DNA of 64,000 nt from Patescibacteria group bacterium UBA6201 (lineage in GTDB: Bacteria > Patescibacteriota > Minisyncoccia > Phycocordibacterales > UBA918). Shown one piece after another: positions 11,080-55,619 of this stretch (positions are counted from its first letter, which is position 1; every line of letters begins with the position of its first letter). The DNA lies in assembly GCA_002422025.1 (NCBI GenBank), contig DISV01000004.1:102578-166577 (forward strand), written 5' to 3'. The notes beneath the pieces were generated by a model. That model was given only the letters and a program-made list of their open reading frames with translations, was not told where the DNA came from and searched no databases. Position numbers and translations under genes: made by a program.

Positions 11080-11736
11080 TTAGTACTCGATGGTGATTTC
11101 GCGTTGGATAGTAAAGATAGAATCCAACTGATCACAAGGACGATTGTAGCCTCTAGCAAACACTACAGTGCAGATAGTTCCTGCTGTACATTCAATTGTG
11201 CCTAAACCTTCACCAGTGAGATTATAAGTAAGATCAGTAGTGGCCTCACGTAAGTCAGCAATATAAAGACTCGGTTCTGCACATTTGGCGCCATTGAGTG
11301 TGTATTGATATTTATAGTTATACAAAAGCTGACCACTACTGTTGAATAAAGTTGTGGCCTGTACTCCGGGAGGATTATTCGGATTCACTCCAGCACAAGC
11401 TAGCGATGGTGGCTGTGCCCCACCTTCCTTAAGTAACGCGCTCTTAGTAGTGGGCTGCGCTCGATGGTAACGCATACACTCAAGTCCAATCTGGGCAGAT
11501 TGAAATGATTTTTCTGATTCAATAGCAGTTACCGCCAAAAGATATTGTTTAGTGGTAACAAAAAGTAGCGACAAACCGATAGCCAATACCACACTCACAA
11601 CCACTAAAGTGATGAGTAGGGCGAAACCTTGGTTAGCTTTCGGGGCCGCTTCGCGTCCGGACGCATAAAATTGCCAAACGATTTTACGCAAACGGGTAAC
11701 TAAAAGTTTAAAACTAAAAACTGATTTAAGGTTCAT
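11080..11736 (-). CDS. Minor pseudopilin-like protein (prepilin-type N-terminus without Glu5)
   Basis: ANQGFALLITLVVVSVVLAIG hydrophobic N-terminal helix; last gene of the pseudopilin run. Confidence 0.45.
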   Translation of the reverse strand: MNLKSVFSFKLLVTRLRKIVWQFYASGREAAPKANQGFALLITLVVVSVVLAIGLSLLFVTTKQYLLAVTAIESEKSFQSAQIGLECMRYHRAQPTTKSALLKEGGAQPPSLACAGVNPNNPPGVQATTLFNSSGQLLYNYKYQYTLNGAKCAEPSLYIADLREATTDLTYNLTGEGLGTIECTAGTICTVVFARGYNRPCDQLDSIFTIQREITIEY

Positions 11737-12400
11737 AATACGTATTATAGATATAGCTTTCGAGTACCACACTATCAGAAGGACCATCGCCCCAAGACAC
11801 TTCTGACTGTACCCTCGCCAACGAATTATCTACAGAGATAGAGAGTTCACGTGTGTAGGCAGTAGCTGTTCCGCCGGAAGCACGTTGCTTAAGTGGAACA
11901 CGAGCGCCACTATGTTCGTTGATAACACAGTTACTACCACTACAACGATAAAAACTACTAGTTGTAACAGAGCCGTCTTCTGCGATTTGTACCCCACAAC
12001 GATTTGTACCTCCTACGGGACATAATGAAGCTATGGTGGTCATATTATTCCAAACCTCACCCAGGTTACTATATGTGCTTGCGTCCAACGCATCGTCCTC
12101 ACGTAACTTAACCAAGGCCTCAATACCCTCTTGTGCTAAAAAGACTGCCAAGGTGTTATCTTTTGATTGATTAGCTCTTTTGAGTCCAGAATGTGCGATA
12201 GTGAGCGGACCAACCAGTGCGATTAAGAGTACCGTAATAGCCACTAACACCTCAACGAGAGAATAACCTCTGTGGTGGTTAAGGGTTAGAAGTTTAGGGT
12301 CTAGTGATGCTTTGCCTCTAGACGCAGACACGAAAAATCGCAAAGCTATTTTTCTTAAGCTCTGTACTAGGTACTGCGTGTTGTGTACTAACATAATCAT
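11726..12400 (-). CDS. Type IV pseudopilin (prepilin N-terminal cleavage/methylation domain)
   Basis: RGYSLVEVLVAITVLLIAL class-III signal motif after a long leader. Confidence 0.6.
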   Translation of the reverse strand: MIMLVHNTQYLVQSLRKIALRFFVSASRGKASLDPKLLTLNHHRGYSLVEVLVAITVLLIALVGPLTIAHSGLKRANQSKDNTLAVFLAQEGIEALVKLREDDALDASTYSNLGEVWNNMTTIASLCPVGGTNRCGVQIAEDGSVTTSSFYRCSGSNCVINEHSGARVPLKQRASGGTATAYTRELSISVDNSLARVQSEVSWGDGPSDSVVLESYIYNTYYEP

Positions 12401-13086
12401 AAATCAAGTACGCGCTTAGTGACGGTTGTCTGTATCATAAATGCCGACCCGGTATTATTTACGCCCACCACCTCTCCCTCGATGAAGATTGTGACATTCG
12501 GTTGGAATAGATTGATGTCGTCTTCCTTACTAGCAGTATTTGACACATTAAAGTGCATAGCGGTGATATCGATGGTCGGATTAGTTAGACGAACCCACGA
12601 ACCAGTACCAACCTTACGCTCAATGGAGCCATCGGTAGAATTATGACGGTAAGCTATACGCCGATTATCCGATCCTGCGGTCAAACTTTTACCTCCTTCG
12701 ATTATAGACAAGTATGACCCTTTATTACAATCTTGATGAATCGTAACATTGCCTGTTGTCTCTGTGCCATTCGAACAATAATAAGCGAAGCCGGTCCTAA
12801 TCTCGCGAGTCATACTGTCTAGGGCAAATTGGATGTTACTAACTGACTCTTGAGTATTTTGTGCTTTAGCATTAGCGTTGATTAAGACCATCAAAGCACC
12901 GATACCCATAGTAAGAACAACTACAAAAAGGGCCATTGAAACCAGAAGTTCAATTAAGGAGAAACCACTGTTAGTACGCAGTACACGGGACGCGGGACGC
13001 AGGAACGTATTGTGTCGAGAAGCAGAAAATCGCGAAGCGATTTTCTGCTTCTCGTGTTCTGCTTGCTGTGTACTGTGTACTAACAT
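12397..13086 (-). CDS. Type IV pseudopilin
   Basis: NSGFSLIELLVSMALFVVVL prepilin motif (G|FSLIE). Confidence 0.65.
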   Translation of the reverse strand: MLVHSTQQAEHEKQKIASRFSASRHNTFLRPASRVLRTNSGFSLIELLVSMALFVVVLTMGIGALMVLINANAKAQNTQESVSNIQFALDSMTREIRTGFAYYCSNGTETTGNVTIHQDCNKGSYLSIIEGGKSLTAGSDNRRIAYRHNSTDGSIERKVGTGSWVRLTNPTIDITAMHFNVSNTASKEDDINLFQPNVTIFIEGEVVGVNNTGSAFMIQTTVTKRVLDL

Positions 13087-13088
13087 AA

Positions 13089-13733
13089 TTATTCAACAGT
13101 TATCTGACCGGCCGCATTTATTCTTATCAATCGACTACCAGTATCATTTAAGGTAGCCACTCCTACAGCACCGTCTGAGACGGTACCGTTATTTATTACA
13201 GCATCAAAATTTGGTCGCTGAAATGTAATGGACATGGTACTTAAACTGCAGTTTATACCGCTACATAACTGATTAATAGCAAAGCGTGAATCCAGTCTCC
13301 TCGTTTCCAATTCTTCGCCGGCAGTATAATAGCCATTTTCATTACTATCACGAAAAATTATGTAGCTACCCGGCTCCGCCGTGGCAAAATATATTCCATA
13401 TGGACGTCGGAACTCGCTACTGCTTCCCGTGGCCGAGAGAGAACGCGTTTGTATCTCTCGAAGTTCTAGCGCGATTTGAAAGGCTTGGTTTTTAAGGAGA
13501 ATCAAGTTATTGAACGCTCCATATCGCAGAGTAACAATACCAGTAATTAAACCGATGATTGCAGCAGTAATTAAGACCTCGAGTAAAGAGAAACCCTTAC
13601 TGGGACACGGTACGCAGCCCATGGTAGATAGTGTGCAAGACGCTTCTCGTCCAGCGACAGAAAATCGCTTCGCTCTTTTCTGTCTTTTAGATGCTAATAG
13701 ATATAGCCTCAATGAAAGTAAGAATGTTGGCAT
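13089..13733 (-). CDS. Type IV pseudopilin (start may be the internal Met at 13622)
   Basis: MGCVPCPSKGFSLLEVLITAAIIGLI prepilin motif. Confidence 0.6.
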   Translation of the reverse strand: MPTFLLSLRLYLLASKRQKRAKRFSVAGREASCTLSTMGCVPCPSKGFSLLEVLITAAIIGLITGIVTLRYGAFNNLILLKNQAFQIALELREIQTRSLSATGSSSEFRRPYGIYFATAEPGSYIIFRDSNENGYYTAGEELETRRLDSRFAINQLCSGINCSLSTMSITFQRPNFDAVINNGTVSDGAVGVATLNDTGSRLIRINAAGQITVE

Positions 13734-14508
13734 TAAAAAAGTAAACCATTACAAACGCAAGAATTAGGAATGGCGCGAACGGAACTTCACTTTTCATCTT
13801 AACACGTTGAGTGGAGCCAAAACCGAGGTACTTGTGTAGATTCACTTTCTGAAAGAGGATGATTGAAACACTAATAAGGGCGCCAATCCAGAACGACCAC
13901 ACTACCAATGAAAACACGCCATTCATTCCAACCAATAAACCGAGACTAACCGCCAACTTAGCATCCCCCAAGCCTAACCATCGCCCACTTGAGAACCACC
14001 ATAGCGAGAAAAAAAAGAAAAAAGCGATAAAGGCTGAAAGTAGCGCAGAACCAAGTCCGCTAATGTCGTTGGCAAACCAAGATTCATAACCGACAATGAA
14101 TAAAGCTAAGATAGCCAGACTAAGCGACAGTTCATCGGGAATGATCATGTGATAAAGGTCATAGACCAACACAACCACCAATATAGACATAAAGGCCGTA
14201 AGAAATACAAAAATGCCAATATCTGAAGTGTTGAAGTAAGCTAAGAGAAAAGTAATTGCTGTCAGCACCTCAACTAACGCATAACGGTATGGGATGAATG
14301 ATTGACACGAGCGACAACGACCCCTAAGGACTAGGTATGAAAAGAGCGGAAATAACTCATACCATTTAAGAGTAGTCCCACAAGACAGACAGTGGGAACG
14401 GTCGTTTAGCGAACGGTTAGTATGAAAACGGTAAATAACAACGTTTAGAAAGCTACCAATAATGAGACCAAACAAAGCCACCACAAAAATAAAAAACCAT
14501 TCTGGCAT
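13687..14508 (-). CDS. pilD: Prepilin peptidase / N-methyltransferase (A24 family)
   Basis: N-terminal CxxC..CRSC zinc motif and polytopic membrane domain. Confidence 0.85.
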   Translation of the reverse strand: MPEWFFIFVVALFGLIIGSFLNVVIYRFHTNRSLNDRSHCLSCGTTLKWYELFPLFSYLVLRGRCRSCQSFIPYRYALVEVLTAITFLLAYFNTSDIGIFVFLTAFMSILVVVLVYDLYHMIIPDELSLSLAILALFIVGYESWFANDISGLGSALLSAFIAFFFFFSLWWFSSGRWLGLGDAKLAVSLGLLVGMNGVFSLVVWSFWIGALISVSIILFQKVNLHKYLGFGSTQRVKMKSEVPFAPFLILAFVMVYFFNANILTFIEAISISI

Positions 14509-14790
14509 AAACTAAGTATAACTCCAGACACCAGTCCTGCCGTGATTTTGCGTGGATAGACCAAAGGAAGACGCTAATTTCAATCTACAGACTAACAAGG
14601 CTCTCCGTACTTAAGAATGACAAAACCATAGCAACAGTAGGACTAGTGTGAGGGTAAGCCCCACACCCACTTTTTTCAGTAACTTCTTACACATCTTTCA
14701 TGTAGCCAAAGAAGTCACGGGTAAATTTAAAAACTAATCATAAAACACCCCACTAGGTGGGGTGTTTTATGAAATTGTACAAAATGCAAT

Positions 14791-15210
14791 CTAAGAAGCT
14801 GGACAAGCAGTTCCAGCGCCGAGTGCGCTTGTAACTATTCGAGCGACACCAGTACTATCAACACAATAATATTGTGCAGTGTTAGACATTAGTTGAGCGG
14901 ACATGGCCCAAACCAACGGAGTATCGTTACAATCAACAACTGCACTGCCAGAGGTACCAGCTGCTACTTTCATAGTAGTGATGCCGGTAGTTGCGGTGCA
15001 TACACCGTCGTAAGAACGACTATTGTCGTCATAGTAAAGTTCAGCTTGAGCCCGAGAATTGTTAAGGTTTGATTTGATAGCAGCATCTGCTCCCTTATCA
15101 CGAGCGCTATTAAGTGATGCCAACACCACTGAGGCCAAGATACCGATGATGGCAATGACCACGAGGAGCTCGATGAGGGTAAAGCCGCGGCTAGATGTTT
15201 GTTTAATCAT
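14791..15210 (-). CDS. pilA: Type IVa major pilin paralogue 1
   Basis: Leader MIKQTSSRG|FTLIELLVVIAIIGILASVV; first about 120 nt of the mature region are identical to the next gene. Confidence 0.8.
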   Translation of the reverse strand: MIKQTSSRGFTLIELLVVIAIIGILASVVLASLNSARDKGADAAIKSNLNNSRAQAELYYDDNSRSYDGVCTATTGITTMKVAAGTSGSAVVDCNDTPLVWAMSAQLMSNTAQYYCVDSTGVARIVTSALGAGTACPAS

Positions 15211-15347
15211 AAAATGTAAAATAATTTTCCTTACGTTCATTTTACACCCTACACTGTGAAACATTTGAATGTGTGTGAATAACTAGGAACAAAAAAACAG
15301 CAAGCAATCAAGCTCACTGTTTTTTCCTAAACTAAACTCCTAACTAG

Positions 15348-15743
15348 TTAAGGACAAGTTGTAGCTCCTGTAGTAACTGACGCTGTAGCGGTAGTAGTAG
15401 CGGTTCCAGTTGAGTCTACACAGTATGTGGAAGTAGTAGCGCTCGAGAGAGAAGCAAAAGCTGCCCATACGTCTGCCGTATCATTACATTCACCACCAGC
15501 TGCGCTTACACCTTGTGCAACGTTAGAATCAGCACAAACATTTAAATAACTACCGTTATCATCGTAAAACAATTCAGCTTGCGCACGAATGTTATTAAGG
15601 TTGGACTTGATAGCGGCGTCCTCTCCCTTGTCGCGAGCGCTATTAAGTGATGCCAACACCACTGAGGCCAAGATACCGATGATGGCAATGACCACGAGGA
15701 GCTCGATGAGGGTGAAACCTCTTTTAAGTGTGTTCTTAATCAT
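15348..15743 (-). CDS. pilA: Type IVa major pilin paralogue 2
   Basis: Leader MIKNTLKRG|FTLIELLVVIAIIGILASVVLASLNSARDKG; Thr/Ala-rich variable C-terminus. Confidence 0.85.
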   Translation of the reverse strand: MIKNTLKRGFTLIELLVVIAIIGILASVVLASLNSARDKGEDAAIKSNLNNIRAQAELFYDDNGSYLNVCADSNVAQGVSAAGGECNDTADVWAAFASLSSATTSTYCVDSTGTATTTATASVTTGATTCP

Positions 15744-15949
15744 ATAACTAATTACTTTATAACTTACCTGCTCCAGACATCAGCTGCGTGTCTTGAACAG
15801 GACATCCGTTTAATGGATACTATCAATTCTATAGTTATTCTTGGCCACTTAGATAAATGAGTGTGGATAAGACCAGTTTTTTAATCAAGATACTTTTGAT
15901 TGGGGCCTAATTTTTTAGACTTAAAAAATTAGGTGGAGCTATGTTTAAC

Positions 15950-16081: not shown

Positions 16082-17290
16082 TTAGATAGCGGCGGTCATA
16101 TTGTAGATAGGCATCAAGACAGATGCCAACAAAGTACCCACACCAACACCCAAGAGAACAATCATCACTGGCTCAATCAGTCCAATCAGGGTATCAACAG
16201 CGTTATTCACCTCACGTACATAGAAGGTAGCCAACGTCTTCATAATCTCCGAAAGATTACCGGTCTCTTCTCCGACCTTAGCCATCTGAGAAAGCACACC
16301 AGGAATCTCTGGATACTCAGAAATCGCATCAGCAAACGACCGGCCACCTTTTACTTCCACTAAAGTGTTCTGTAGAATTTCTTTAAAGACTGCATTATCT
16401 ACCACTTCAGCCGTTACCTCGAGTGCCTGCACCATGGAGATTCCACTTTGGAGCATCGTGGCCAAGTTGTCACAGATGCGGGCTAGGTAAAGCTTTTGAT
16501 AAAGATCTCCTATGTAAGGCAGGGTGATTTTCAACTCATCGAAGGCCCTTTGTCCGACTGGAGTCTTTAAGAAACGCCACAGAAATACTCCACCAATAGA
16601 AGCTAGTGCCAGCATTACTCCTATGTAATCAGTAAGGACAGTTGAAATGGCTATAACGATTTTGGTATAGATAGGTAGTTCCTGACCGGAGTCAATGAGA
16701 ATTTGACTAATACGTGGAATCACCATCGTAAGCATAAGTCCCATCACGAGGATGAATACTCCAACAACAAAGGCTGGGTAAACAAGAGCATTTTTAGCTT
16801 TAGTTACTACCTGGTAAGTACGGTCTAGGTAATCTGCCAAATAACCGAACGACTGTTCTAAAGAACCAGATTCTTCTCCGGCCCTAATCATATTTATATA
16901 GAAATCACTAAAGACATCAGGGTGTGCGGATAGAGAACGTGAGATTGAACTACCAGCCTGCAAATCATCAGCAATATCATTCAACACCATCTGCATCTGT
17001 GGATTTTCCGCCTCAGTACCCAATAGGCGAAATATGCGGAGTGCCGATACCTGAGCATCAAAAAGAGTGGCGAGCTGGCGAGAAAGTATAACTACTTCCT
17101 TGTTTGATATTCTTTGAAACCAAGTAATTTTAAAATTTAAAAGCTGTTGCTTTTCCTCTACCGGATCAATCGATATGACTGTATAACCGCGTTTTTGTAC
17201 GGTCGCAATGGCCGCATCGATATTACCAGCTTCGACAATACCTTCGCGTTTAACGTTAGTTTGATCAATGGCCTTATAAGAAAACAACAT
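16082..17290 (-). CDS. pilC: Type IV pilus platform protein PilC (GspF family)
   Basis: 402 aa, two T2SS-F repeats, three TM segments. Confidence 0.9.
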   Translation of the reverse strand: MLFSYKAIDQTNVKREGIVEAGNIDAAIATVQKRGYTVISIDPVEEKQQLLNFKITWFQRISNKEVVILSRQLATLFDAQVSALRIFRLLGTEAENPQMQMVLNDIADDLQAGSSISRSLSAHPDVFSDFYINMIRAGEESGSLEQSFGYLADYLDRTYQVVTKAKNALVYPAFVVGVFILVMGLMLTMVIPRISQILIDSGQELPIYTKIVIAISTVLTDYIGVMLALASIGGVFLWRFLKTPVGQRAFDELKITLPYIGDLYQKLYLARICDNLATMLQSGISMVQALEVTAEVVDNAVFKEILQNTLVEVKGGRSFADAISEYPEIPGVLSQMAKVGEETGNLSEIMKTLATFYVREVNNAVDTLIGLIEPVMIVLLGVGVGTLLASVLMPIYNMTAAI

Positions 17291-17577
17291 AGATATAGTT
17301 TAAAGTTAAAAGCTGAAAGTTGAAAGGCGTGGAGCTGTGTTTAACTTTGCCGTATCCTAACCGAAGATTTTTAGACGCAGTTGCACCAGTGCGAGGTAGT
17401 TTAGGGAGGAAGACGTGAGGTGTGGATACATTTAACAATTTGGATTGTTAAACTTTTTAAATTGGAGGAAATTCGACGGTTTGCAGGAGTTTTTGTGACC
17501 AAGGCGTAGATTGACCTACGGTGCGGGAGCAAAAACTTCGAAAACCTAGGATTTACCCAATTTTGGAAGTTTAGGAT
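17291..17577. repeat. Composite dispersed repeat (Q plus R modules) filling the pilC-pilT spacer
   Basis: gtgaccaaggcgtagattgacctacggtgcggg...cctaggatttaccc is near-identical to 54120-54215 and 51100-51160. Confidence 0.55.
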
Positions 17578-18648
17578 TTATATGAGGCGCTCTAATCCTT
17601 TAGGATTAACCGAGTAAGCAAAAGCATTCTCAACTGTAATCTCGCCCTTCTTAACTAACTCAACTAACGACCGGTTCATATCAATCATTCCGTGCTCAAG
17701 ACCAGTTTCAATCACCGTTTGTACTTCATGGGTACGCCGTTCACGAATCAGGTTAGAAACTGCACTGTTGTTGATTAAAAGTTCATAAGTAGGAATCAAT
17801 CCACCTTGAATACGAGGAATCAAACGTTGTGAAAAGATACCAGTAAGCGACCCTGCCAACTGCACACGTATCTGATCCTGCTGACCAGCTGGGAAACTAT
17901 CAATAATACGATCAATCGTTTGAGCAGCATTGTTGGTATGGAGGGTTGAAAATACCAAGTGTCCAGTCTCAGCAGCAGTCACCGCTGTCGAAATCGTCGC
18001 TGGATTACGCATTTCTCCCACTAAAATAACGTCGATGTCCTGACGAAAAACAGCATTAAGACCAGAAGCAAAATCGACAGTATCGGTACCGACCTCACGT
18101 TGCTCGATTAGAGCTTGGTCAGCTGTATAAACATATTCAATCGGATCTTCAATAGTCACAATGTGATCAGGACGACTCTTATTAATCATCTGAATCATCG
18201 ACGCTAGAGTAGTAGACTTACCTTGTCCGACCGGACCCACACAAAGAAAGAATCCTTGTGGTCTTTCGGTAAAACTCGCTAATATTGGTGGCAAATTTAA
18301 CTCTTCTAAGGACTTGATATCGTTTGGAATATGACGGAGTGCAATAGCTGGAGTACCCTGCTGATGATAAGCATTGCCACGGAAACGCACACCGTCTGAA
18401 GCAGCAAAAGAAAAGTCTACCTCTTTGGTTGCTGTAAAGTTAGTCTGCTTTTGCTCTGTCAACAAGATTCCACAAAAACCCATCACGTCTTCAGAGGTTA
18501 AAACTGGCTTCTTTACCAAAGGCACCAAGGAACCCATTACTCTAACCGCAGGATGTGTTCCAACTGACAAGTGTATGTCAGAACCCTTTTCAGACACCAC
18601 TATATCTATTAAATCTGTTAATTCTCTTCTGTAATCTACATTGGCCAT
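17578..18648 (-). CDS. pilT: Twitching-motility retraction ATPase PilT
   Basis: Walker A GPVGQGKSTT, PilT/PilU-type AAA+ domain, 356 aa. Confidence 0.9.
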   Translation of the reverse strand: MANVDYRRELTDLIDIVVSEKGSDIHLSVGTHPAVRVMGSLVPLVKKPVLTSEDVMGFCGILLTEQKQTNFTATKEVDFSFAASDGVRFRGNAYHQQGTPAIALRHIPNDIKSLEELNLPPILASFTERPQGFFLCVGPVGQGKSTTLASMIQMINKSRPDHIVTIEDPIEYVYTADQALIEQREVGTDTVDFASGLNAVFRQDIDVILVGEMRNPATISTAVTAAETGHLVFSTLHTNNAAQTIDRIIDSFPAGQQDQIRVQLAGSLTGIFSQRLIPRIQGGLIPTYELLINNSAVSNLIRERRTHEVQTVIETGLEHGMIDMNRSLVELVKKGEITVENAFAYSVNPKGLERLI

Positions 18649-42876: not shown

Positions 42877-43491
42877 ATGAATTTTTCCCGTACCACAAAA
42901 AAGGTTATCGCTGTTGACTTCGATGATGTTGTAATGCACTTCAGTACTGGATTCTTAACTTTTCATAATCGGTTACACGGAACCAATTTGGTGTACGAAA
43001 ACCTCACTCGTTATGATGACTGGGAACTGACATACGGATGCGACAAGGAAACAATGGCAGGAAGAGCGACTGACTTCTACCACTCCCCCGATCATATGTT
43101 GGTACCACCGGTACCAGGGGCAGTTGAAGCGATTGCGTATTTATCAAAAACATATTCGCTTCAAATAGTGACCAGTCGGCCTGAATCTACTCGCTCGCCG
43201 ACTTTGAAATGGTTGGACAGTCATTTTCCGAAACTTTTTCACGACTTTCATTTCACTAACGGCTACGCGGGAGCCGCTGATGCCAAACTAAGGGCAAAAT
43301 CGGAAGTATGTCGTGAGATTGGTGCCGTAGTGCTGATTGATGACGCAATGAAACATGCTTGTGATGTTGCAAATAGTGGTATTCCCACCCTGCTTCCAAA
43401 CCGTCCATGGAACCAGGGTCCAGAACCGAAAGGAGTATATCGAGTATATTCATGGAAAGAGACCATTAAATGGATTAGTGAGAATGTTTAG
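42877..43491 (+). CDS. Island cargo: HAD-superfamily 5'(3')-deoxyribonucleotidase (NT5C family)
   Basis: VIAVDFDDVV (HAD motif I), ...VTSRPE..., LIDDAMKH; terminator at 43492-43532. Confidence 0.65.
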   Translation: MNFSRTTKKVIAVDFDDVVMHFSTGFLTFHNRLHGTNLVYENLTRYDDWELTYGCDKETMAGRATDFYHSPDHMLVPPVPGAVEAIAYLSKTYSLQIVTSRPESTRSPTLKWLDSHFPKLFHDFHFTNGYAGAADAKLRAKSEVCREIGAVVLIDDAMKHACDVANSGIPTLLPNRPWNQGPEPKGVYRVYSWKETIKWISENV

Positions 43492-43574
43492 GAACAAAAA
43501 CCAGACACACTAGTGTGTCTGGTTTTTGTTCCTTATGGTGTAAAGATTGTTTTGTTATATGTTAAAATCGCGCG

Positions 43575-47830: not shown

Positions 47831-48059
47831 GTGAGTCGCCAACGCATGTCCCTGGAAAAGTCCAGGTGGGCACCGTTACCGATAGCAGTCTGAAATTCTC
47901 GGCCATATGCCTAAAGATTCTCATATGCTAACGCGTCTAAAGGCAGCCCTGACAAAAAAATTAACTCGGAACATACGATAGCGACTCAATAACAGGATAT
48001 CATAAACAAAAAATGACAATACTTTAGTATTGTCATTTTTTGTTTTTTAATAAACTTTC

Positions 48060-52425: not shown

Positions 52426-52526
52426 CATAGAATCAAGTATAAAGTTAAAAGTGGAAAGTGGAAAGCTGGCTCTTAACCCCAAGGTGGTGGTTTGTCGCCC
52501 TGTAGCTAGCCTTAGACTTTCAGCTT

Positions 52527-55348: not shown

Positions 55349-55358
55349 TTATTTTTTA

Positions 55359-55392
55359 GGGTTTAGGGACCAGGGTTTAGGGACCAGGGAAC
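55359..55392. repeat. Tandem repeat (gggtttagggaccag) x2
   Basis: ttagggtttagggaccagggtttagggaccagggaac. Confidence 0.5.
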
Positions 55393-55573
55393 ATGTCGGT
55401 AAAACCAACATACAGAACCCAATCCCTTCAGCCTCAATCCCCTTCTTTTCGAGCAGTATCAGCTAGATGTGCTGACTTACATCGACTATTAATCTTCTAT
55501 GGAAGGCCGCCCTGCTGGGCATCTATCGGCAACCCATATCGCTCGCTACATTACCAGAATTTGGATAAAAATC

Positions 55574-55612
55574 AAGCCCCGCGCCAGAGGTGACGCGGGG
55601 CTTTTCTTTTTG
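55574..55612. terminator. Strong GC hairpin inside the spc operon, between rplE and rpsN
   Basis: aagccccgcgccagaggtgacgcggggcttttcttttt; T-runs on both strands. Confidence 0.45.
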
Positions 55613-55619
55613 TAAAAAA

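Follow-up and report, generated by a model that had tools for sequence, protein, structure and literature searches.

Heptamer-armed palindromes in the cleaved leaders of four patescibacterial minor pilins

The genes considered here lie in a 64-kb stretch of contig DISV01000004.1 of the Patescibacteria group bacterium UBA6201 (the window: the whole 64,000 nucleotides, the first letter being position 1). Four consecutive minor-pilin genes of a type IV pilus cluster, C3, C2, C1 and C4, each specify a prepilin leader of 37-47 codons (close to the 40 or so amino acids first estimated), and each leader contains, upstream of its G|F(Y) cleavage site (the bar marks the cut made by the prepilin peptidase PilD), a palindrome with the core GAAAATCGC-N3-GCGATTTTC. 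These long leaders are very probably a nucleic-acid cassette, a hairpin with arms of heptamer repeats, that lies in frame within the portion removed from the prepilin, belongs to this operon alone, and changes through slippage, self-correction and gene conversion. What the cassette is for can be said with much less assurance. We tentatively favor a cis-acting long hairpin of the simple-sequence repeat (SSR) type, placed in a disposable leader, that may tune or vary tip-pilin expression gene by gene within an operon whose cistrons are translationally coupled.

The cassette and its base pairing

The original prediction, drawn from the letters of the window, had put modules, each with a perfect palindrome of 13-15 bp, upstream of the G|F sites of three consecutive pseudopilins. 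The modules are real, but there are four of them (the copy in C4 had been missed), and the only perfect palindrome is that of C2, which at 18+3+18 nt is longer than claimed; the copies in C3, C1 and C4 have mismatches, and in C4 about 10 pairs, including a mismatch, close a loop of 4-5 nt. Some positions have had to be moved: the 15-nt arms quoted for C2 under 13029-13062 are at 13019-13033 and 13037-13051, and the C1 palindrome is at 12332-12354 instead of 12318-12345. A start module, ATG(A/T)TTATGTTAGTACACA, is common to C1 and C2 (12363-12400 and 13055-13092; 76% identity over 38 nt), but only to these two. Allowing up to three mismatches, AAAATCGC-N3-GCGATTTT has five matches in 64 kb where 0.41 are expected, four of the five in the leaders.

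The cassette, about 90-145 nt long, begins a few bases ahead of the ATG, ends with the Gly codon where PilD cuts, and is in frame. Its parts follow one another in a set order: ATG and a few codons; 3-5 YAGNNNN units; a perfect or near-perfect hairpin (core GAAAA(T/A)(C/T)GC, 3-nt loop, variable outer stem); a spacer; 3-5 CTRNNNN units; and xxGly|Phe. The spacer is short and asymmetric (about GGACACGAAGCGTCA) and always lies 3' of the tip; the polarity of the cassette is therefore fixed. The heptamer periodicity of the arms is plain: the 5' and 3' arms have autocorrelations of 0.54 and 0.44 at lag 7 and of 0.50 and 0.40 at lag 14, whereas the remaining lags give 0.22-0.35, and coding sequence taken as a control gives 0.22-0.28. 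The 5' units may be (CAGTTTT)3, (CAGGTTT)3 or (TAGGGNN)4, and some 5' arms are (GGGN4)n arrays; the 3' units may be (CTACAAC)3 or CTAAAAC CTGACAC CTGTCAC. Three matches to (YAGN4)x3-YAG occur in the window, where 0.08 are expected.

The two arms can also pair with each other: pairing of a cassette's own arms is worth -16.8 kcal/mol, compared with -12.2 kcal/mol when the arms are taken from other genomes (p=0.003). It is strong in about 10 of 28 cassettes (among them the window copy, W, of C2, L002 C1, L183, L185 C3 and L180 C2) and absent in some of the rest. In the window C2 leader the fold runs from the upstream stop/start to the cleavage site, the minimum free energy (MFE) being -58.8 kcal/mol (z -10.2) in the sense direction and -74.2 kcal/mol (z -10.4) in the antisense direction.

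Orthologous clusters were compared in ten related metagenomic or metagenome-assembled genome (MAG) loci (L001, L002, L004, L178-L180, L182-L185), one partial locus (L181) and nine distant ones. The order PilD-C3-C2-C1-C4-LigA is kept wherever the contig spans the region. The nine distant loci (at most 43% identity) have ordinary leaders of 9-20 amino acids and no hairpin, and a search of metagenome contigs for related loci returned distant orthologues only, likewise at no more than 43% identity, with short leaders and no hairpin. Among 30 long-leader cassettes from 11 genomes, 16 have a stem that is Watson-Crick paired without fault over 10-18 bp, around a loop that is always of 3 nt and closed by GC...GC. 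Examples from the related loci are GGTGCGGAAAATCGC-gga-GCGATTTTCCGCACC, GGTACGGAAAAATGC-gga-GCATTTTTCCGTACC, GGACACCGAAAATCGC-tcc-GCGATTTTCGGTGTCC, TGAGCAGAAAATTGC-aaa-GCAATTTTCTGCTCA and GCGGCGAAATGGC-tac-GCCATTTCGCCGC.

Variation in the core is compensated (ATCGC/GCGAT, AATGC/GCATT, ATTGC/GCAAT, AACGC/GCGTT, ATAGC/GCTAT, ATGGC/GCCAT), and the outer stems, unrelated in sequence between copies, are nevertheless complementary. When 28 copies are aligned on the loop, 14 of 18 pairs have changed on both sides; cells with double changes number 74 against 35.7 in shuffled alignments (none of 500 shuffles reaches the observed value), and the covariation score, a check that the original prediction had proposed, reaches 0.377, where shuffles give 0.18 and slid partners 0.07-0.18. 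The three copies in L002 have diverged from one another, yet each still pairs perfectly with itself over 15-16 bp. What is conserved is the pairing and not the sequence. RNAalifold, given full-length cassettes, recovers just the 8 innermost pairs because the repeat arms do not align.

The leader as coding sequence

Do the pilins start ahead of the cassette or after it? The original prediction had leaned to the latter: a regulatory element that is not translated, be it attenuator, operator or processing site, followed by pilins starting at a short internal Met or Val. In the 30 cassettes there are no in-frame stops, compared with 96 and 99 in the other two frames, which are open in just 2 and 1 of the 30; 12 of the 30 have no ATG, GTG or TTG beyond the first ATG, and that first ATG is placed at the stop codon of the preceding gene. 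Open frames and the lack of another start mean that the long leader is translated through the hairpin that it contains. Within the window an internal ATG is found only in the first gene, C3, where it would yield a normal leader of 10 amino acids; at most this one gene fits an internal start. The proposed roles fare no better. An intrinsic terminator or attenuator should have a U-tract after a G+C-rich stem, and none was found on the sense strand after the 13016-13054 stem, which was flagged only in the + (antisense) direction, with a weak T-rich tail. An operator is at odds with outer stems that are variable yet complementary, which point to a folded hairpin rather than to a sequence-specific duplex site. 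An untranslated element is the least probable of the readings considered here.

Genuine terminators at this locus are of the A-tract/GC-stem/T-tract form, for example at 14738-14772, a 16-bp bidirectional terminator after the second major-pilin paralogue. Two further perfect palindromes in the window, both flanked by A/T tracts and terminator-like, are at 43490-43533 (22+22 nt, no loop) and 48004-48045 (20+20 nt, 2-nt loop).

If the leader is translated, might the peptide be what matters? A conserved long leader peptide with a role at the protein level (targeting, chaperoning, delaying assembly), the palindrome being incidental, would agree with leaders that are always translated and with the peptide R-K-I-A-x-R-F-S, which recurs in many homologues; conservation as amino acids was also the observation that the original prediction had named as its own refutation. 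The motif KIAxRF is nevertheless a by-product of the nucleotides, because 1) two genomes read these nucleotides in a different codon phase: the first base of the loop is at codon position 3 in most copies but at position 2 in L183 (three copies) and L184 C2, giving the unrelated peptides KWLRHF or KSLCDF in place of KIAxRF; 2) residues at two paired codons occur solely in combinations compatible with base pairing (I/R, I/Q, I/L, N/R, N/H); and 3) residues of the outer stem vary freely. Close relatives, moreover, function with leaders of 9-20 amino acids. A role of the leader peptide as the cause of conservation is very improbable, and already effectively refuted. The earlier claim of conservation at the DNA level is thus borne out, by the compensated stems and by the second codon phase; the accompanying statement, that indels shift the frame between copies, is not true of the window, where all four palindromes are in one frame (K-I/R-A/V-x-R/Q-F); a shift of phase is seen only between genomes.

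The genes are in the order PilT, PilC, two major pilins, PilD, C3, C2, C1, C4, LigA, with all pilus genes of the cluster on the - strand (Table 1). The 3' end of PilD overlaps the start of the C3 leader, the 5' part of which is also PilD coding sequence; the ATGA start of C1 overlaps the C2 stop codon, and the start of C4 overlaps the C1 stop by 11 nt. The minor-pilin genes overlap or abut (ATGA, 11-nt and 47-nt overlaps) and therefore leave no intergenic space for a regulatory element. By most marks these are prepilins: N_methyl matches for C1-C3 (E 4e-06 to 7e-06), G|F or G|Y cleavage sites, a Glu at +5 in C1-C3, and a prepilin peptidase nearby. The short basic leader of about 5-30 amino acids is what they lack. 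An orthologue of C4 has a faint PilX_N match. The closest protein matches are in Candidatus Nomurabacteria, Kaiserbacteria and Paceibacterota, which belong to the candidate phyla radiation (CPR)/Parcubacteria. The tandem major-pilin paralogues share 203 nt at 82% identity in their N-terminal region (15012-15214 and 15545-15747).

Table 1. Features of the pilus locus and heptamer arrays, by position in the window. Bits are scores with CM R1, a covariance model (CM) of the tip hairpin; ORF, open reading frame; TRF, Tandem Repeats Finder.
Feature	Position	Strand	Remarks
C3 leader	13593-13733	-	47 codons, ATG 13733 to Gly 13595-13593; internal ATG at codon -10
C3 tip hairpin, GACAGAAAAGAGC-GAA-GCGATTTTCTGTC (sense)	13656-13684		13-nt arms, 2 mismatches; CM R1 38.6 bits
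C2 leader cassette	12964-13086	-	41 codons, no alternative start codon; whole leader folds as one long hairpin
C2 perfect palindrome, CGAGAAGCAGAAAATCGC-TTC-GCGATTTTCTGCTTCTCG (sense)	13016-13054		18+3+18 nt; CM R1 44.6 bits
C2 5'-arm heptamer array, TAGTACA CAGTACA CAGCAAG CAG	13059-13082	-	TRF period 7
C2 3'-arm heptamer array, (CGTCCCG) x2.7 (sense)	12986-13004	-	TRF period 7, 91% matches
C1 leader	12266-12400	-	43-45 codons
C1 tip hairpin, GAAAAATAGC-TTT-GCGATTTTTC (sense)	12332-12354		10-nt arms, 1 mismatch; CM R1 33.3 bits
C4 leader	11626-11736	-	37 codons
C4 decayed tip hairpin, GCGTAAAATCG-TTTG-GCAATTTTATGCG (sense)	11662-11689		CM R1 36.1 bits
PilT	17578-18648	-	type IV pilus cluster
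PilC	16082-17290	-	type IV pilus cluster
Major-pilin paralogues, two	15348-15743 and 14791-15264	-	type IV pilus cluster
Prepilin peptidase PilD	13687-14508	-	Pfam A24_N_bact 1.4e-30, Peptidase_A24 5.5e-14
Minor pilin C3, G|FSLLEVL	13089-13733	-	ORF; N_methyl 7.1e-06; synteny kept in 11 loci
Minor pilin C2, G|FSLIELL	12397-13086	-	ORF; N_methyl 4.4e-06; 170 homologues
Minor pilin C1, G|YSLVEVL	11726-12400	-	ORF; N_methyl 4.3e-06
Minor pilin C4, G|FALLITL	11080-11736	-	ORF; no Glu at +5, GspK/PilX-like
(CTTTNNA) heptamer arrays	17291-17330, 52428-52470, 694-733	-

Distribution, exchange and possible roles

Scanning the window with CM R1 gives the four leaders, at 33-45 bits, and next an ordinary terminator at 20.6 bits; in 11 related and 9 more distant loci every match is in a minor-pilin leader, with the exception of one of 22.4 bits in the distant L134. 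Dispersed copies in unrelated genes or intergenic DNA are accordingly absent from the 64 kb, and that single weak match is the only one in the orthologous loci. The 9-mer GAAAATCGC is not dispersed either (4 occurrences in 64 kb, 3 of them in leaders). A scan of the whole collection with GAAAAWYGCNNNGCRWTTTTC reached at least 120 loci in many phyla, mostly terminator-like or array hairpins; among the matches listed none is in a prepilin leader, and a few are CPR intergenic examples.

Two CPR loci deserve mention in their own right. In a Saccharimonadales MAG (L031, JBBDKW010000005.1, 5826-5900), a hairpin of the same core, CTGAAAAATGC-AGA-GCATTTTTCAG, comes directly after the pilT stop codon and is followed by (AGAATCA)x4 and (CATGCTT)x3 before pilC; the arrangement is intergenic and belongs to a different CPR class. 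Its occurrence in a pilus locus lends support to the expression-tuning reading. In a Saccharibacteria MAG (L045, CAZTJK010000001.1, 4987-5019), a perfect 15-bp palindrome of the same core type, GGCGCGGAAAAACGC-TTC-GCGTTTTTCCGCGCC (42 bits with CM R1), is apparently inside an RNase HII-like reading frame (..GAEKREAFFRA..).

Within the family the cassette comes and goes. All ten related loci have it in C2, one of these copies being decayed; L001 and L004 have it in C2 only, L002 in C3, C2 and C1, and the window, L179 and L185 in all four genes. C2-family leaders have a median length of 15.5 amino acids (106 representatives with a recognisable cleavage site), and 28 are of at least 25 amino acids, nearly all of them from the closest relatives. 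A single cluster of proteins at 90% identity includes a plain leader of 18 amino acids, a decayed one of 34 and full cassettes of 41-42; in another cluster two members, P0067 and P0158, differ by 7 amino acids, that is 21 nt, or three heptamer units. Exchange between genes of one genome is also evident: leaders are more alike within a genome (0.63) than between orthologues (0.57; p=0.008), the reverse of the mature regions (0.61 and 0.70). In L183 the identity of C2 and C1, at 92%, starts precisely 5 nt ahead of the ATG and stops at the Gly codon, the two being unrelated outside these limits; in L185, C1 combines the 5' half of C2 with the 3' half of C3/C4, and the junction is at the hairpin. 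This is segmental gene conversion of a discrete cassette.

How much of this calls for a function at all? The main rival to expression tuning is a neutral or selfish palindrome that maintains itself: functionless, tolerated in an unconstrained, cleaved leader since it is in frame, and produced by slippage (the heptamers), intrastrand template switching (the perfect palindromes and inverted loops) and gene conversion between adjacent paralogues. It would resemble the in-frame Rickettsia palindromic elements (below); as in such mobile, MITE-like repeats, the palindrome is inserted in frame and translated. Presence and absence that differ gene by gene and inside 90%-identity protein clusters, the within-genome likeness of leaders, and mosaic exchange with sharp cassette boundaries and a junction at the hairpin all speak for such an element.

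Further observations tell against the expression-tuning hairpin, and the first three also speak for neutrality. 1) Some genes or strains lack the cassette even though the mature proteins share 90% identity or more; it is therefore dispensable. 2) Many copies have decayed: most of those in L178 and L179, and three of the four in the window, where the C1, C3 and C4 leaders fold weakly (z -1.1, -2.1 and +0.2). 3) The structure is strand-symmetric. Sense and antisense cassettes have MFEs of -33.2 and -34.8 kcal/mol (p=0.2); single internal mismatches are G.U in 4 cases, A.C in 4 and other in 4; and loops occur as reverse-complement pairs (TTC 6 and GAA 3, GGA 3 and TCC 3, AAA 3 and TTT 2), as template switching inside a DNA hairpin would be expected to leave them. 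A DNA palindrome accounts for such symmetry at least as well as a sense-RNA element does. 4) Rfam, at relaxed as well as gathering thresholds, has nothing over the leaders at E<=10, its matches in the window being only tRNAs and tmRNA, and the conserved neighbourhood holds no candidate trans-acting factor. The arm duplexes are no more partial to one strand (-16.8 and -18.2 kcal/mol, sense and antisense; p=0.26). The element is symmetric, and its strands offer no means of telling an RNA role from a DNA role.

Several observations speak against neutrality, which we rate as somewhat less likely than expression tuning. The palindrome has no copies outside the leaders in 64 kb or, one weak 22-bit match apart, in the other loci searched, despite the intergenic DNA that is available; its core and 3-nt loop are conserved across diverged genomes; the diverged copies of L002 each retain perfect pairing; a unit of 7 nt, not a multiple of 3, that persists in an ORF is unexpected under neutrality; and neither a transposase nor a target-site duplication is seen.

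A repeat unit of this kind inside a 5' coding region is a feature that the cassette shares with SSR contingency loci (phase variation). Heptamers (7 = 1 mod 3) together with a cruciform-prone palindrome could serve at the DNA level as a contingency locus or recombination hotspot, driving ON/OFF frameshifts, recombination or gene conversion and so varying the minor pilins on display. Perfect tandem heptamers do occur (CAATTTT x4 and CTACAAC x3 in L001, perfect x3 arrays in L183 and L185); with about 3 stops per cassette out of frame, a slip of one unit would truncate the protein; and the three-unit difference between P0067 and P0158, the hypervariable leaders on near-identical mature proteins, the recombination junction at the hairpin and the (GGGN4)n arrays in some 5' arms point the same way. 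Yet none of the 30 cassettes is out of frame, the arrays, of 3-5 units, are short and for the most part imperfect, comparable ones stand ahead of the housekeeping genes secY and rpsN, and near-identical strain DNA offers no differences: the duplicate contigs L002/L003 and L004/L005, compared for variation in repeat number, are identical. Gene calls truncated at the 5' end (MELLVS..., MGLFIVV...) were considered as frameshifted OFF alleles and rejected, the sole example examined, L186, having an intact in-frame leader of 20 amino acids and being a gene-caller artefact. We regard this DNA-level mechanism as improbable. A broader version, only slightly less doubtful, would have CPR episymbionts carry an undescribed contingency cassette, heptamers and perfect palindrome in a PilD-cleaved leader, copied between four leaders and switching or grading the tip pilins (by unit-slippage frameshift and/or hairpin-dependent mRNA processing), so as to vary attachment to the host.

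About 12% of database homologues are annotated to start after the prepilin cleavage site (P0013, P0015, P0019, P0024, P0029, P0031, P0035, P0064, P0066, P0068, P0072 and P0076). In L186 the true in-frame ATG and leader lie upstream, at 2415-2500; this one entry is a gene-calling error.

Expression tuning, our tentative preference, draws on pairing kept independently in the diverged L002 copies, on the conservation of core and loop length across genomes, on the restriction of the cassette to this locus, on an operon with no intergenic room for a conventional element, and on close precedents (the hmw 5' untranslated region (UTR) hairpin, which is the closest, and the pil1 leader, below). Ribosomes that reach the hairpin from the preceding cistron, in a minor-pilin mRNA that is polycistronic and translationally coupled, would have to melt it, and its stability might set the amount of each tip pilin or expose double-stranded RNA to processing; heptamer arms and palindrome would mutate fast, through slippage, template switching and conversion among the four leaders, and strain-to-strain variation could follow. 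Any effect on expression, action on RNA rather than DNA, and the involvement of RNase III are things that we only infer.

Other classes of element were tried and rejected. A DNA uptake sequence would be over-represented genome-wide, and GAAAATCGC occurs just 4 times in 64 kb, with 3 of these in leaders. An integron attC/cassette array is contradicted by the gene order, PilD-C3-C2-C1-C4-LigA, being fixed in all complete loci and by sites that are inside ORFs, and inspection of the cassette sequences found no RYYYAAC/GTTRRRY pair. GGA loops, as in CsrA sites, are present in some copies only; the NAG repeats of HutP/TRAP-like systems do not fit units that differ between genomes (e.g., CAATTTT); a translational bypass or frameshift signal lacks a stop codon or slippery site at the right place; and the spacing of the cassettes, about 635-690 nt, is not that of a CRISPR/TIGR-like array but merely equals gene length.

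Heptamers also occur outside the leaders. Of the 24 tandem-repeat rows in the window, 8 have period 7, the sole lag from 5 to 11 with long arrays. The ATGs of pilC, secY and an ORF that begins at 693 are each preceded, at a distance of 2-8 nt, by a (CTTTNNA) array of 3-4 units. The rplE-rpsN spacer (55349-55619, - strand) is unusually long at about 270 nt: a terminator after rplE is followed by a long hairpin (55349-55470) that ends 9 nt before the rpsN ATG, has the tip AUGUUGGU-UUU-ACCGACAU with one G.U pair, and has arms of (CCCTAAA/CCCTGGT)n in the sense direction, which on the + strand is (GGGN4)5, a G-quadruplex (G4)-type motif. The 286-nt region folds with -102.8 kcal/mol (z -4.7), and its architecture resembles that of the leader cassettes and of the hmw 5'UTR hairpin. 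Heptamer arrays may be a general feature of 5'UTRs or initiation regions in this organism.

Relation to known systems

In the ultra-small CPR/Patescibacteria the principal machinery of the cell surface is the type IV pilus, which probably serves in attachment to the host and in DNA uptake. The operons of these bacteria are compact and overlapping, with no room for classical regulatory regions, and an element in a disposable leader would be a neat solution. If the cassette is a switch, contingency mechanisms of the SSR/hairpin type, known from pathogens, would extend to uncultivated episymbionts; if it is neutral, it is a clean natural example of the birth, self-correction and gene conversion of a palindrome inside a coding region. 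There is also a warning for annotation: prepilins with a "long leader" and conserved "leader motifs" may be the read-through of DNA or RNA structure.

The leaders of type IVa pilins are typically of 5-10 amino acids; those of type IVb are of 15-30, conserved as peptide, and not known to hold a nucleic-acid palindrome. The present leaders resemble those of type IVb/Tad prepilins in exceeding the type IVa length; they differ in that close orthologues have leaders of 9-20 amino acids, the extra length being an insertion. Neisseria provides SSRs in comparable places: opa has (CTCTT)n in its leader and pilC a poly-G in the region coding for its signal peptide, long perfect tracts with documented ON and OFF frames, while pilE undergoes G4-initiated gene conversion. 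What the cassette shares with opa and pilC is the place of its simple-sequence repeat, within a signal or leader that is cleaved from a protein of the surface or pilus tip; the difference is that no OFF allele is seen among 30 cassettes and that a palindrome is the dominant feature.

Rickettsia palindromic elements (Ogata 2000/2002, as summarised in PMC10969869) are of about 100-150 bp, lie in frame in protein-coding genes, and are translated and tolerated by the host protein. To that extent the cassette is like them: a palindromic repeat, in frame, translated and tolerated. They are dispersed in dozens of unrelated genes, whereas the cassette is found, in the loci scanned, only in the leaders of four adjacent paralogous pilins and always at a constant position.

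In Streptococcus gallolyticus pil1, repeats in a leader ORF and a stem-loop control pilus expression (PMC3894217). Shared with the cassette are the non-triplet tandem repeats in a translated leader and the stem-loop; in pil1 the ribosome destabilises the stem-loop, and the pilus genes are thereby controlled (PMC3894217). The pil1 leader, however, is a separate short ORF followed by a genuine terminator; the present one is fused to the pilin, and its hairpin has no U-tract.

The 5'UTR of Haemophilus influenzae hmw forms a 122-nt hairpin, the left arm of which is ten AUCUUUC heptamers, and which is cleaved by RNase III; the hairpin is needed for expression of the adhesin and for change in repeat number (PMC12721329). 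As in hmw1A/hmw2A, where they form the arm of a long (~120 nt) hairpin just upstream of the functional part of a surface adhesin, heptamer repeats would form such an arm in the cassettes with strong arm pairing; the element would likewise be cis-acting, with structure tied to repeat dynamics, and some copies have a G-rich or G4-capable partner arm. The hmw element, on the other side, is in an untranslated 5'UTR, has at least 11 perfect repeats and undergoes demonstrated cleavage by RNase III, whereas the cassette is in a leader that is translated and cleaved, has 3-5 mostly imperfect units on both arms together with a conserved perfect tip hairpin, and occurs four times in one operon.

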